Assembly (NCBI GenBank): GCA_963706575.1
Contig: CAVPNL010000004.1
Coordinates: 128,001-192,000 of the forward strand
Reading direction: 5' to 3'
DNA length: 64,000 bases
DNA from: an uncultured delta proteobacterium
GTDB taxonomy: Bacteria > Desulfobacterota > Desulfobacteria > Desulfobacterales > JAHEIW01
This document shows positions 35,301 to 41,300 of this stretch, piece after piece (the stretch's first letter is position 1; every line of letters starts with the position of its first letter). The position numbers were made by a program.

Positions 35301-38300
35301 GAAGCGTTCCGCGTCTTCAGAGTGGAGGAGGTTCTGCGGCTCAATCGCCAGTTTCATTTCACGATCTATTCCGCCACCCGCATGCGGCGGCTAATGTACA
35401 TCATCAACGGCTTGTGGGATCAGATCAGTCCCTATTACCATATCCTTCTGCGAAAAAAGGAGCACCTCTATACGGAAAAGCACGCCGACACCCATGGCCA
35501 GCTGTTGGAGAGACTGAAACAGAAAGACATTGAAGGCAGTGTTCAGGCCCTGCGCGCCGATCTGCAAAACGCGGCGGAGTTAATCATCACCGAATTTGAA
35601 AAGCATCGCGAGTTCGAAATCATTTAATTTCGCCGGTTTTCATATAATTGGTAATCCTGCCGGCTTTGTAAGCCTGATTGAAAGCCGCAACCACACCCGG
35701 ATCAAACTGGGTACCATCGCCCTCATTGATAATTTTAATAATGATGCCGTCCTCCATTTTTTTACGGTAGGCGCGGTCGGAGGCCATGGCGTCATAGACA
35801 TCGGCCACCGATAAAATGCGGGCCAAAAATGGAATATCCTGCTTCCTGATCCCATCGGGATAACCGCTGCCATCAAAACGTTCATGGTGAGAGCGAATAA
35901 TTTGCCTTTCTTTTTCCCACAAACCCAACTGCTCGAGAATGTTGGCCCCGATGACCGGATGATCCTTGATTTTTTCGAATTCATCGTCTGTCAATCTGCC
36001 GGGTTTGAGCAGAATGTCATCTCTGATGCCGATTTTGCCGATGTCATGCAGATGGCCGGCAAAATTGAGAATATCCAGCTCTTCTTTAGAGCATCCCAGT
36101 TGCTTTCCCAGTATGATGGACAGCCCGGTAACGCGACTGGAATGCTGCCGCGTATATAAGTCCCTGGCCTCCACTGCTTTTACGAATGCATAAAGGGTGG
36201 CAAATAGATTCTCATAGATATTTTCATAGAGGGCCAGGTTTTCAATGGCCTGGGCTGCGCTCTGGGCTAAAAAAGAAAGATAATAAAGATCTTTTTCGGC
36301 AAAGCGCTTTTGCCCTTGATCCACGATGGCTGTGATCACGCCGAAAACCTTATCCCGAATTTTTAAAGGCACAATCATGGCCGAGTTGATTTCAGCCGGC
36401 AAACCGTTGCTTGCGGTATGTTCAGAGATCAATAGCGGTATCTGATCCGAGACGACTTCCATTATCAGTGCGGCGCTTAAGGGCTCCAGGTCGGTGGTGG
36501 ACGGCGTCTGTGACTCCTCATAAGTGGTTTTCCAATTCTGGGATGCAGCCGGACCGACAGATTCAGCTGATGATGATGACACCTTGATCGGTTCCTCAAC
36601 CGTTTCATTAATTACATAAAAGTCGGTATAATCGGCGCGAGAGATGTCGCGGGCAATATCAACGGCCCGCTTGAACACGTCGGTGCTGGAACTGATGGCC
36701 GTAAATTTTTTCATTATGTTGTTGAGGATGTTCAGTTCTTTAACTTTGACCAGTAACTCCTGATTTACCTTCTGAAGACGCTGCTTGCCTTCAACCTCCT
36801 TTTTTAAAAGAACATTTTCCGCAAATATTTTGCGCTGCTGCATCACGCGCTGCACGCACAATTCCATCTGTTTCAAATTGACCGGCTTGATCAAAAAATC
36901 GACCACCCCGTTTTTAATGGTCTGGATGGCGTTTTCCAGTGAAGGATAACCGGTCATAATGATCACCGGCATGGTATTATCGTGGGTTCGAATTCTTTCG
37001 GCAAGTTCTATCCCGTTCATAACGGGCATATTGATATCGGTAAAACAGCAGTCTATGGTTTCGCCCGCCAGGAGTTTAAGCGCCTCAGGGCCTGTTCTGG
37101 CGGTCAGGGTCTGGTAACCCTTGCGCTGAAAGTACTCGGCGGAAACGCTTAAAATACTCTCTTCATCATCGACAAACAGGATGGTTTGTTTTTTTTCAAT
37201 ATCCATTGGCAAAAATCTAAAGCGTGCCTTTTAGTCCGGTTAAAATTTCAAAAGATAGCAGTCCCCTGACTGCCAAAGCCACTGAGTGTGATATCGACAT
37301 TTTGGGCAAAAACTTTAGCCACCGGCAGAAGCGAATTTGCCGATAGATATTGCCTTATTTTTAGATTCATGACAGAAGACGACTTTGAAAAAGCGCTTTA
37401 CGATAAAGCGACACTGATATAAACCACGAAGAGCACAAAGAGCACGAAGCGTTAAATTCAAAGAAAGCGCTTTAAACGTTTTAAAAACTTCGTGTCTTTC
37501 GTGGTGTTAATAAATGGTTTAAAAGAAGCACAAACATTACAATTCTGCTAAGAATATGCTTACAGACGCGTTAAAAAGGCCTCTGAGAATCTGCCTTTTA
37601 AGCTACCGGTGCAACCCGCATTGCGGCGGTCAGGGCGTGTATCTGAAAAATCTGAGTCGTGCCCTAAAGGATCTCGGGCATCGGGTAGAGGTGGTTGTCG
37701 GCCCACCGCAGCCGCAGCTTGATGATGACATCCCCTTTTATCAACTCCCATCTCTGGACCTTTACAACCCCGATGATCTGTTCAGGATGCCGTCTTTAAA
37801 AGAGCTTTCCCGGCCAATCAATCTAATCGAGTGGATCGGGGTTTCGACCATGGGATTCCCCGAGCCCTTTACCTTTGGACTGCGGACCCGCCGTTTCCTG
37901 CGAAACAGGCGCCAGCGATACGATATCGTCCACGACAACCAGGGATTGTCCTACGGCCTGCTCACCATAAAGAAATGGCTTCCCACCATTGCCACCATTC
38001 ACCATCCCATCACCGTCGATCGCAAAATCGCCGTCCGATCCGCTCCAACCATATGGAGAAAGATGCAACAATGGCGCTGGTATTCGTTTATCGGCATGCA
38101 AAAGCGCGTTTCCAGAATGCTTGACCATATTATTACGGTCTCCAAAACAGCCGGAAATGATATTTCCCACGATTTTAAGATTCCCCCGGGCCGATTCAGA
38201 ATCATACCCAACGGCGTTCGCACCGATCTGTTTTATCCGATTCCCGAAATTGCGCGGGAAAAAAACCGTCTGATCGTAACCAACAGCGCCGATATGCCCC

Positions 38301-41300
38301 TAAAAGGACTCTATTACCTGCTGCGGGCGGTTTCGAAAGTCGCTCAAACACACCCGATTCAACTCACCGTTGTGGGAATACCCCAAAAAAATGGGTACAG
38401 CCAGGAACTTATTCAAAAGCTGGGTATTGGAAACCGAATCACATTCACCGGTCGGATCGCCGACAAACAGTTCGTGCGCGAATACGCCAAGGCAACAGCG
38501 GCGGTTGTGCCGTCAGTGTATGAAGGATTTGGATTGCCCGTCGCCGAGGCCATGGCCTGCGCAGTGCCGGTCATCAGCACAACCGGCGGGGCCCTGCCCG
38601 AAGTTGTGGGTGACGCCGGTCTTCTGGTGCCGCCGGCCGATCACCGGGCTCTGGCAAACGCGATTTTAACGATCCTGGAACAACCGCAATTGGCTCAAAA
38701 ATTGGGCCGGGCAGGCTACCAAAGGGTTCATCAACATTTTACCTGGCTGAAAGCGGCCCAAAAGACCGTCGCGGTATATCGGGAGGCCATTCGTGATTAC
38801 CGTTGATTTCAAGCAGCTCCAAATCAACCCCGGTTGCCGCATACTGGACATCGGCTGTGGAACAGGACGCCACACTTCGGCGGCCTTTCAGTTTAAGAAA
38901 ATTACCGTTATCGGCGCCGATCACAATATAAATGACCTTTGCGAAGCCAGAAACCGGATTCAATTACATGAAAGACTGGGTGAACACGGCGGCGGGCGGT
39001 GGGGACTGGCCGCCGCCGATATCGCCGGCCTGCCGTTTAAAAACGATGTCTTCGATCTGGTTATTTGCTCCGAAGTACTTGAGCACGTTTCCCGGGATGA
39101 CATCGCTGTCAATGAGCTCGTCCGGGTTTTAAAGCCGGAACATAACCTGGTGGTCAGCGTTCCGCGTTACCTGCCGGAACGCATCTGCTGGGCGCTGTCC
39201 AAAGATTATAGGGCCGCAGATAACGGCCATGTCAGAATTTACCGCAAAAAAAAACTTATCCGGTATTTGGAAAGTCTCGGCCTAAAACGCTGGGCGGTGC
39301 GCTACGCCCATAGCCTGCACACCCCCTATTGGTGGCTGAAATGCCTGGTGGGGCCCGGCCGCGAAGACGCGGTAATGGTGAACCTTTACCATCGTTTTTT
39401 GTCCTGGGATATCATGAATAAACCGAAACTGACCGGTTGGATGGATAGATTGCTCAATCCGGTTCTGGGAAAAAGCCTGGTGGTTTATCTGAGAAAAGAA
39501 TAATGAGCTTGCCATCGAATTCGAATAACAATTAACCAATAACGAATAACACCTAATTGAGTGGATATCGCTCAATTAGGTCCTCCGTTGAAGTACGCCC
39601 AGAGTTTTGATCATAGACAGGGGACCAAATTGTCCGGAAGAAAGCGCCAGATTATAAATTTGGCGGGGTGCCTGCCCGCCTTCCGCAGGGTCTTCAAAAA
39701 TATCGTGGATGAGAAGATATCCCCCCGGCTTAATATGCGGCGCCCAGCAGTCATAATCTGAAAAAGCCGCTTGAGCCGTGTGACCCCCATCGATAAACAC
39801 CAGGCTCAATGGTGTCGCCCACAGCCGGGCTGCTACATCCGAGCGGCTGACCATGGCCACAACCGTATCTTCAAGGCCGGCTTCTTCCAGCGTCTTGCGA
39901 AATTCGTGAAACGTATCCACCCGGCCGGTTTCAGGGTCAAAAAGCGCAGGATCAAAATAGGCCTGACCGGGTTGTTGTTCTTCAGACCCGCGATGATGAT
40001 CAATGGAAAACAGGATGCCATTGTTCGTTTTGCAGGCCATGCCGATATAGATCGTTGATTTGCCGCAATAGCTGCCGATCTCCAAACACGGGCCCGTCCG
40101 ACTGGCCTCAAGCGCAATTTCGTATAAACAGCGCCCTTCTTCTTCATCGAGGAAGCCTTTGGTGCTGCTGAGTAGCTCGGGGTCAATGTTCATACTGCGG
40201 TTCTCAGGTACGAGGACGGGTACGACCAGAAGCACCGAATTCGTTTGTCGTCCTCGGATTCTCTCCAATTCTTAATTTTCAGCTTGCTGAAGTGTAAGGC
40301 CGGCCTCCGTGCCGGCCAGGGCAAAGCAGCCACGGAGGGCTGCCCTACTCTTGACAGGTGACTCCGACCATATTTTTCAGATTATTAAAGCACAAAAAGG
40401 CCGGTATCACTTAAAGGCAGATAGAATATCGAACATTGAACAAGGAATTTCGAATGATGAAGTAATCTAGCCGTATGGCCATCACTCCTGTGACCGGCGA
40501 TCAAAGCTGCTGACGAGAACGTCCCTGGGCTTGGCGCCGTCTGAAGGGCCGACGATCCCTTCTTTTTCCATTTTTTCGATAATCCGGGCCGCTCGATTAT
40601 ATCCGATTCTCAAATGGCGCTGGATCATGGAAATGGAGGCTTGCCCGGCCTCGGTGACAAGGGCCACCGCATCGTCATAGCGCTCGTCATAATCATCATC
40701 ATCGGATTCGGTGGATTGGATGGCGGATGTTTCGGTAACTTCTTCGTCGTATTCCGGTTTTTCCTGGCTCCTTAAAAATGCAAGGACCTGAGTCAGCTCG
40801 CCCTCGGAAATATAGGCGCCGTGAATGCGTTGCAGCTTGGCGGTGCCGGGCGGTAAAAACAACATATCCCCGTTGCCGAGCAGATTTTCGGCACCATTGG
40901 TATCGATAATGGTTCGAGAATCGGTTCGGGAAGAAACCTGAAAAGTCAGACGGGTCGGGAAATTGGCTTTGATAATGCCGGTTAATACATCCACAGAGGG
41001 CCGCTGGGTCGCTAAAATCAGGTGGATTCCGGCGGCCCGGGCCATCTGGGCCAGCCGCGTTAGCCCGACCTCAACATCCCGCGAAGCGAGCATCATCAGG
41101 TCGGCAAGCTCATCAATGACAATCACGATATAAGGCAGTGTTTTGGGGGCTTCCTTATCGGCCGGTTTTTGCGCCTTGGCCACTTTATTGTTGTATTGTT
41201 TGATATTACGGGCGGTCATTTCGGAAAACAGTTCGTAGCGTTTTTCCATTTCGCGTACCGCCCAAAAAAGCGCATTGGTGGCTTTCTTTGGATCGGTGAC

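Follow-up and report, generated by a model that had tools for sequence, protein, structure and literature searches.

We identified true orthologues of ManT, pMeT3, MeT1 and MmpH, the four proteins of the mycobacterial methylmannose polysaccharide (MMP) gene cluster, in the genome of an uncultured sulfate-reducing member of the Desulfobacterales (GenBank assembly GCA_963706575.1; dsrA scores above cut-off). Their orthology is shown by best matches and direct alignment, by the conservation of catalytic residues and of gene order, and by co-occurrence and trees. These genes probably make up a complete and ancient MMP-type pathway that lies at two separate loci and is augmented by an O-acetyltransferase; the likeliest job of its predicted polymer is the binding of long-chain acyl-CoA. 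The gene set is not peculiar to Desulfobacterales. Three of its genes lie in the window, by which we mean the whole 64,000-nucleotide stretch that was analyzed (contig CAVPNL010000004.1, positions 128,001 to 192,000).

The window encodes manT (37556-38806, plus strand, 416 aa), a GT4 alpha-(1->4)-mannosyltransferase orthologue, and pMeT3 (38793-39503, plus strand, 236 aa), a class I SAM methyltransferase orthologous to the putative 3-O-methyltransferase, the start of which overlaps the end of manT by 14 bases. A gap of 72 bases (39504-39575), at the spot taken by mmpH in the canonical cluster, separates pMeT3 from the convergent meT1 (39576-40193, minus strand, 205 aa), an orthologue of the 1-O-methyltransferase that caps the reducing end. 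A preliminary description had extended this group from 37556 to 40235; its genes are borne out, but meT1, on the minus strand, starts at 40193, at an ATG common to its relatives, and 40235 corresponds to an in-frame GTG further upstream. Directly upstream of meT1 and on the same strand are core-genome genes for a plsC-like acyltransferase, RNase J and ftsK (40482-45232, minus strand, assigned by Pfam), which are context rather than pathway; of the 24 loci for which the ORF caller recovered meT1, 21 have it beside ftsK. The second locus, on another contig (C5), contains mmpH (C5:67703-68764, plus strand) and, after 323 bases, an acetyltransferase gene that we call acT (C5:69088-69807, plus strand). 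manT, pMeT3, meT1 and mmpH are each single-copy in the host genome. Scans for promoters and terminators gave results at chance level. Twelve sequencing runs contained 5-12% of the words; among four of them examined further, contigs of relatives span all three window genes in two RNA libraries, a signal that has no silent control and does not equate to transcription.

Searches of the PDB agree with the manT, meT1 and mmpH assignments of the preliminary description. ManT matches 7qsg (E 2.1e-104 over residues 9-412, with the next match at E 1.5e-30), the sole match of MmpH is 7qsj (E 4.3e-96) and MeT1 matches solely 6g7d/6g80/6h40 (E 4.6e-62), entries named 'Methyltransferase domain protein' that we take to be M. 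hassiacum MeT1. Identities to a Mycobacterium sp. cluster (L025), whose own MmpH matches 7qsj at E 7e-208, are 44% for ManT, 46% for pMeT3, 47% for MmpH and 49% for MeT1. NCBIfam and Pfam contain no family specific to these proteins. The methyltransferase had been equated with pMeT3 by position only, and direct alignment now settles the assignment: the gene that stands between manT and mmpH in the L025 cluster shares 46% identity with it over 235 aa (E 3e-76), and a Nonomuraea gene in the same cluster position shares 44% over the full length. Its predicted structure (pLDDT 96.5) has RebM as best fold match (TM 0.67), and RebM and AtmM lead the fold comparison (TM 0.65-0.68, 17-19% identity). 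RebM and AtmM methylate a sugar hydroxyl. As numerous further class I methyltransferases reach similar scores, the fold does not fix the substrate of pMeT3, the function of which is putative even in mycobacteria (PMC9883506).

The mycobacterial cluster, manT-pmeT3-mmpH-meT1, is represented by M. hassiacum MHAS_04402-04405 and M. smegmatis MSMEG_6481-6484 (PMC9883506). The Desulfobacterales system resembles it in its four genes, sequence identity (44-49%), catalytic residues, manT-pMeT3 coupling, convergent meT1 and lack of export signals. It differs in its Gram-negative anaerobic host without a FAS-I match, in having mmpH at a second locus, in the dedicated acetyltransferase and optional B12 radical SAM partner, and in a product that is predicted from the genes. 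The host genes do not form one cluster (three in the window, mmpH on C5) and, at 44-49%, fall below the 50% identity by which PMC9883506 called clusters, a search threshold for a survey rather than a functional cut-off. The authors of that study noted a displaced meT1 in some mycobacteria.

Conserved residues provide a further connection to the characterized enzymes. ManT G15, H142, K240, E313 and E321 (M. hassiacum numbering) are kept in the host and in all 43 rows from the order, MmpH D47, W49, D50, M215, Y219, E262, E265 and W315 in all 51 and the MeT1 acidic and His motifs in all 27, the rows including a few repeats of one genome. Every residue proven essential by mutagenesis is retained in the host enzymes. 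Ten of the 11 listed catalytic and subsite residues of MmpH are kept in the host; the exception is F102, which is Leu in the host and is replaced by Met or Leu in 44 of the 51 rows from the order. ManT L291 is Ile in the host, and substrate details may thus differ.

We consider it very probable that the pathway yields a small, amphiphilic mannan of the MMP type, located in the cytoplasm. Hydropathy indicates no signal peptide or membrane helix, and GDP-mannose would be available through manC (TIGR01479, above cut-off at C8:286407). Among the 40 commonest neighbor families in 86 loci, inspected by eye and with few Pfam-scanned, no polysaccharide export or polymerase gene was recognized. By analogy with the mycobacterial enzymes, ManT would add alpha-(1->4) mannose from GDP-mannose onto short primers, pMeT3 would methylate the chain at O-3, MeT1 would cap the free reducing end and MmpH would cut mature chains to release primers for further synthesis, while the Desulfobacterota-specific AcT would most likely acetylate the chain. 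The same enzymes might instead produce some other methylated mannan, whose chains could differ in length or in the methylated position, be modified further by the B12 radical SAM protein, or be lipid-linked or surface-exposed. We think this unlikely: identities below 50%, the altered subsite residues and two extra enzymes exclusive to positive genomes (AcT and the B12 radical SAM protein, the latter in 66 of 109 positive and 0 of 42 negative order genomes) speak for such a polymer, whereas the retention of all mutagenesis-proven residues, the failure to see export genes near the loci and the need of MeT1 for a reducing end that is free, unlike that of a lipid-linked glycan (PMC9883506), speak for the MMP type.

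The gene set is widespread in the order. Across our sample of 151 order genomes, mmpH occurs in 106, manT in 104, pMeT3 in 103 and meT1 in 100, consistent with the initial statement that most Desulfobacterales possess it. The profile is nearly all-or-none, with all four genes in 94 genomes, none in 42 and a partial set in 15 (76 and 32 for four and none, respectively, among the 112 good-quality genomes). The linkage reported at the outset also recurs in this sample: of the 103 genomes that have both manT and pMeT3, 98 have manT directly before pMeT3, while meT1 lies no more than 10 kb from pMeT3 in 51 of 96 and mmpH directly follows pMeT3 in 10 of 100. Three order genomes (G077, G136 and G142) keep mmpH between pMeT3 and meT1-ftsK.

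AcT, which the preliminary description had overlooked, behaves as a fifth member of this set. It has the fold of a left-handed beta-helix (hexapeptide) acetyltransferase along with the His/Trp pair, H122 and W143, both of which are invariant. AcT is found in 90 of 151 order genomes and in 0 of the 42 genomes that lack the set; it never occurs without mmpH (0/90), directly follows it in 79 of 90 genomes and lies elsewhere in the genome in 10. Outside the order, acT directly follows mmpH in 21 of 22 loci, and in 19 of these 22 loci from other Desulfobacterota the genes form a single manT-pMeT3-mmpH-acT run. At the threshold used, AcT is missing from 8 of the 76 good genomes with four genes. Among solved structures, those closest to AcT are O-acetyltransferases of maltose, galactosides and polysialic acid, and its best sequence and fold matches are the left-handed beta-helix sugar O-acetyltransferases Maa, LacA and NeuO. 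H122 aligns to the catalytic His of the Maa motif. AcT differs from these enzymes in its low identity (~22-26%) and its additional conserved N- and C-terminal helices, and scores below all NCBIfam cut-offs.

A precedent for an acetylated methylmannose polymer is the acetylated MMP (AMMP) of Streptomyces griseus, as named in PMC9883506 (Fig. 1 and ref. 12 therein). We lean toward the view that AcT acetylates the predicted chain to give a comparable form. Alternatively, AcT could be a passenger that acts on another sugar, leaving plain MMP, a reading that would accord with the 10 order genomes in which acT lies away from mmpH, with the lack of covariation between AcT and the MmpH F102 subsite and with the finding of no acT within 5 kb in any of the 61 actinobacterial or 14 Pseudomonadota loci, Streptomyces, the genus of the known acetylated form, included. 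We judge it improbable in view of the strict co-occurrence with mmpH and the four-gene runs in other orders; by comparison, a control glycosyltransferase with a similar tendency to lie close to manT occurs in 14 of 42 negative genomes. No homologue of AcT lies within 5 kb of mmpH in the sampled Streptomyces loci, and so a different or unlinked enzyme must carry out acetylation there; ORFs inspected by eye in eight Streptomyces loci revealed no acetyltransferase between mmpH and meT1. Four other MmpH columns differ between AcT-linked and unlinked proteins in a pattern that follows the tree. A 585-aa reading frame that seemed to fuse MmpH to AcT (G123, L133) crosses a stretch of N and is an artefact of assembly. 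The control glycosyltransferase, a QTMAN/DUF3524-like GT4 that adjoins manT in six loci, was considered as a primer-making enzyme and, given its presence in negative genomes, is not a dedicated member.

We next asked what the polymer might do. At least 23 matches to acyl-CoA dehydrogenases and 41 to the AMP-binding family occur in the host genome, which gave no match to FAS-I. Across the order, the gene set is present in 0 of 16 acyl-CoA-dehydrogenase-poor and 46 of 48 rich genomes; in the rest of the phylum the figures are 0 of 156 and 28 of 134, mmpH being absent from the other 106 rich genomes. Acyl-CoA dehydrogenase richness predicts the set better than a control family does (AUC 0.88 versus 0.70, or 0.82 versus 0.57 after size correction), although at family level genome size performs similarly (0.82 versus 0.85 for acyl-CoA dehydrogenase). 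Kin are not independent in these statistics, and kinship confounds them. Presence of the set in ~70% of the order, the host genome without FAS-I and the way the set tracks richness in beta-oxidation genes point to a catabolic acyl-CoA role. MMP binds acyl-CoA in vitro, and the classic idea of FAS-I regulation derives from in-vitro work that mutants did not support (PMC2674218). Against an acyl-CoA role, mycobacterial mutants in these polymers are reported to have unchanged fatty acids (PMC2674218), and PMC9883506 found an effect on growth in the cold only. Desulfobacterales mineralize fatty acids and hydrocarbons in sediments (PMC11887813).

That the predicted polymer binds long-chain acyl-CoA in beta-oxidation, rather than regulating FAS-I, is a credible proposal that we hold at slightly less than even confidence. 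A somewhat doubtful competing account is that the polymer is made but serves in cold or other stress or in storage, the association arising from common descent or from the genes having been lost together in streamlined lineages. Genomes without the set are smaller (median 3.4 Mb versus 4.4 Mb) and differ in the control family too, whole families are positive or negative, mutation of mmpH affects M. smegmatis only at 15 C (PMC9883506) and a role in fatty acid synthesis in vivo is doubted in PMC2674218. Against this account, the acyl-CoA dehydrogenase effect holds in all three size classes and persists in a joint model with size and the control family, three within-family contrasts (f5, f40 and f75) agree in direction where the control does not, and the association recurs in other orders. 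A broader and more tentative proposal, which we regard as rather less likely than not, is that MMP is an ancient polymer of at least three phyla, kept by bacteria with large acyl-CoA pools, and that Desulfobacterota possess their own acetylated form (B12-radical-modified in some lineages) that buffers long-chain acyl-CoA in anaerobic beta-oxidation without FAS-I. If true, it would identify the class of acetyltransferase that has been missing for MMP and explain what the polymer is for. The role of MMP has been in question for decades, and Desulfobacterales offer natural positive/negative pairs for testing it. The host cannot be called MGLP-free, as GpgS scores above cut-off at C1:15386-16327, where no MGLP-like cluster was seen by eye.

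Beyond the order, Alpha- and Gammaproteobacteria also carry the gene set. Eighty named loci include 61 actinobacterial, 14 Pseudomonadota and 4 delta-type ones, and 76 of the 80 share the order manT>pMeT3>mmpH. The initial statement that MMP has been tied to actinobacteria holds for the main text of PMC9883506, but the accompanying peer-review file mentions MmpH homologues (40-51%) in some Proteobacteria. Literature searches at the level of listings and abstract openings, with subscription journals mostly outside coverage, turned up no description of the cluster or polymer outside Actinomycetota, and one supplement of PMC11887813 contained no matching terms. In the ManT tree, Actinomycetota (100/99), Pseudomonadota (100/99) and Desulfobacterales with delta rows (98/90) form separate groups, and the MmpH tree is concordant; as the trees follow the phyla, the genes are no recent gift from mycobacteria. 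Recent actinobacterial transfer, bin contamination or scavenging of environmental MMP could be entertained from the host assembly's 6.4% contamination and the patchy distribution in Desulfobacterota (36 of 301), yet we find it highly improbable, given the separation of phyla in both trees, the joint travel of hydrolase and biosynthetic genes and the presence of both loci in both same-genus genomes. These comparisons contribute new homologues of ManT, pMeT3 and MmpH, together with a candidate O-acetyltransferase for MMP. The names among the 120 MmpH matches listed are at MAG level only, with no named cultured strain, and one JGI record is automatically labelled an MMP endomannosidase.

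The genome to which the window belongs, which carries dsrA, encodes one copy each of the four methylmannose polysaccharide (MMP) genes known from mycobacteria. Three of these lie in the window: manT (37556-38806, + strand) encodes a 416-aa GT4 glycosyltransferase, pMeT3 (38793-39503, +) overlaps the end of manT and encodes a 236-aa class I methyltransferase, and meT1 (39576-40193, -) is convergent to pMeT3 and encodes a 205-aa methyltransferase. The fourth, mmpH, encodes a 353-aa protein outside the window (contig C5, 67703-68764). Against the PDB, the 205-aa methyltransferase matches solely 6g7d, 6g80 and 6h40 (E 4.6e-62), which we take to be MeT1 structures, and a Mycobacterium sp. 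MMP cluster (L025) lends support to this identity, since the gene at its meT1 position matches the window protein at 49%. The GT4 protein matches 7qsg (E 2.1e-104) far ahead of the runner-up (E 1.5e-30) and the C5 protein matches 7qsj alone (E 4.3e-96), entries described in PMC9883506 as the structures of ManT and MmpH, respectively.

These matches bear out the ManT, MmpH and MeT1 of the complete set claimed in a preliminary description, and the pMeT3 that it had assigned by gene position now finds support in sequence. The window protein is 46% identical over 235 aa (E 3e-76) to pMeT3 of L025 and 44% identical to the same-position gene of Nonomuraea. L025 has the order manT>pMeT3>mmpH><meT1, and its MmpH scores E 7e-208 against 7qsj. 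An alignment of 94 pMeT3 homologues contains 24 invariant columns that extend well past the SAM motif. The predicted pMeT3 structure (pLDDT 96.5; best fold match RebM, TM 0.67) fits a sugar O-methyltransferase, though it falls short of proof.

Functional residues, numbered as in PMC9883506 and transferred via L025, are largely retained. MmpH D47, W49, D50, M215, Y219, E262, E265 and W315 are present in this genome and in all 51 Desulfobacterales rows, with N101 conserved in 48 and T163 in 49, and ManT G15, H142, K240, E313, G314, F315 and E321 are conserved in 43/43 rows (some genomes contribute two rows). The MmpH F102 position is Leu in this genome and the ManT L291 position is Ile. In the proposed pathway, ManT would elongate a primer with GDP-mannose as donor, pMeT3 would methylate O-3, MeT1 would cap the reducing end, and MmpH would cleave mature chains and so seed new ones. 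For GDP-mannose supply the genome contains manC, and hydropathy revealed no signal peptide or membrane helix in the four proteins. The predicted product is likely an MMP-type mannan.

The orthologous MMP genes co-occur and are linked across the order. Querying one sample of 151 Desulfobacterales genomes with each of the four proteins identified all four genes in 94, none in 42 and one to three in 15, in agreement with the earlier statement that most of the order conserves the set; a stricter subset (n = 112; ≥90% complete, ≤5% contaminated) comprises 76 genomes with four genes, 32 with none and 4 with a partial set. manT is immediately 5' of pMeT3 in 98/103 genomes and mmpH is directly behind pMeT3 in just 10/100. 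Because meT1 adjoins ftsK in 21 of the 24 loci with a recovered meT1, and three genomes (G077, G136 and G142) retain all four genes at the ftsK site, we read the window as an apparently old MMP site from which mmpH moved away. A response regulator-GAF-HD phosphodiesterase (window 35620-37212, -) is divergent from manT, and 11 Desulfobacterales loci carry such a gene close to manT.

An MmpH-motif scan of GTDB genomes returned at least 120 stretches, all MmpH homologues, 80 of them with names and flanks. This motif-biased sample includes 61 loci from Actinomycetota, 14 from Pseudomonadota (SAR86, Halieaceae, Parvibaculum and Henriciella among them), 4 delta-type and 1 unnamed; 76/80 have the order manT>pMeT3>mmpH, with meT1 ≤5 kb away in 66/80. 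Phylum-wide, mmpH occurs in 36/301 genomes. In a careful ManT tree (85 rows), three groups stand apart: Actinomycetota (100/99), Pseudomonadota (100/99), and Desulfobacterales together with the delta rows (98/90). A quick MmpH tree (59 rows) recovers the same groups (97, 94 and 99, respectively) with one long delta row outside. These trees argue against recent acquisition from mycobacteria and, being unrooted, are compatible with either ancient inheritance or ancient transfer. An 11.85-Mb Nonomuraea record (L012, NZ_LT559118.1) is labelled a plasmid in PLSDB and, given its size, is evidently a chromosome.

Behind mmpH on C5 (69088-69807, +) lies a gene for a 239-aa hexapeptide (left-handed beta-helix) acetyltransferase, AcT. 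AcT is present in 90/151 order genomes, directly after mmpH in 79, and no case of AcT without mmpH was observed among the 151. Elsewhere in the phylum, 22 loci of other orders were compared: AcT follows mmpH in 21 (the remaining locus stops at a contig edge) and the run manT>pMeT3>mmpH>acT occurs in 19; none of the 61 actinobacterial or 14 Pseudomonadota loci has AcT within 5 kb. The nearest solved structures are maltose, galactoside and polysialic-acid O-acetyltransferases, and H122 and W143 are invariant (45/45 rows). AcT is probably an acetylating enzyme of the MMP chain. S. griseus makes acetylated MMP (PMC9883506, Fig. 1 legend), which provides a precedent for such a polymer.

Several variations accompany this arrangement. 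Two MmpH subtypes exist within the order, and the ftsK-site subtype mostly lacks AcT behind it. Second, more divergent MMP gene copies (loci L209 in G015, L212 in G098 and L167 in G091) are laid out as manT-pMeT3-radical SAM-acT without mmpH or as pMeT3-mmpH-acT. MmpH homologues with 190-400 additional N-terminal residues (519-740 aa; P0033, P0035, P0045, P0054; G224:C3:529080-530066) are possibly fusions with another cluster gene. Nested inverted repeats between mmpH and acT (L001:8812-9062; 30-nt arms, 90% complementary, within 17-nt arms) resemble a REP-type or miniature mobile insert.

A B12 radical SAM protein (C22:27047-28666, -; L213:17045-18667) was found, with nine candidates scored per genome, in 66/109 genomes with any MMP gene vs 0/42 without. 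Its gene is situated inside the MMP cluster in four loci and may encode an optional tailoring enzyme; the protein may also simply track acyl-CoA-rich genomes. A bacterial tRNA-queuosine mannosyltransferase (QTMAN) homologue (C12:84959-86062, -; L214:4957-6063; PF12038, E 6e-59) occurs in 70/151 order genomes, sometimes adjoining manT, and was rejected as a dedicated MMP partner because 14/42 MMP-negative genomes contain it.

MMP binds acyl-CoA and modulates FAS-I in vitro, and its cellular role is described as unclear (PMC2674218). No FAS-I match was found in this 92% complete genome, which has at least 23 acyl-CoA dehydrogenase and 41 AMP-binding matches. A comparison of acyl-CoA dehydrogenase richness covered 111 good genomes of the order, with three or four MMP genes counted as positive and G115, which has two, dropped. 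The set is present in 0/16 genomes with ≤5 acyl-CoA dehydrogenase matches, 8/16 with 6-8, 25/31 with 9-14 and 46/48 with ≥15, per-genome values of about 23 being lower bounds. The AUC for the set is 0.88 for acyl-CoA dehydrogenases, 0.70 for molybdopterin oxidoreductases (the sole control family) and 0.75 for genome size; corrected for size, the two enzyme families give 0.82 vs 0.57. The association persists in three size classes and three within-family contrasts, in statistics that treat related genomes as independent, which kin are not; at family level, the AUC is 0.82 for genome size and 0.85 for acyl-CoA dehydrogenases. In other orders of the phylum, every one of the 28 genomes with mmpH is among the 134 with ≥10 matches (0/156 below), and 106 of these 134 lack mmpH. 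Acyl-CoA dehydrogenase richness looks necessary but insufficient for the MMP set. The product would be an amphiphilic cytoplasmic mannan, and we tentatively propose that it binds long-chain acyl-CoA while beta-oxidation proceeds; acyl-CoA dehydrogenases also use short, branched and aromatic substrates. The association provides a testable clue to MMP function.

That MMP has been tied to actinobacteria, as previously asserted, holds for the main text of PMC9883506, which confines its survey to that group and never mentions proteobacteria; the accompanying peer-review file names MmpH homologues at 40-51% in some Proteobacteria, which were left aside. One JGI record among the Desulfobacterota-type homologues is already labelled MMP endomannosidase. 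In literature with poor coverage of subscription journals, we found no published account of the whole set, AcT or the acyl-CoA association outside actinobacteria. Judged from sequence, the set is a real, seemingly unpublished extension of the known pathway with a lineage-specific variant.

Elsewhere in the genome, a glucosyl-3-phosphoglycerate synthase (C1:15386-16327; L245) scores above the NCBIfam cut-off; this enzyme catalyzes the first step of both glucosylglycerate and MGLP synthesis. Corrinoid methyl-transfer genes (window 30745-34108, -) encode a corrinoid protein, a URO-D/MtbA-like methyltransferase and an MtmB-family (monomethylamine methyltransferase-like) protein of 465 aa in one open frame with no in-frame stop. 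In a 400-aa ORF (window 34425-35627, +), a tyrosine-recombinase-like domain (E 3e-9) is fused with a GntR/FCD regulator.
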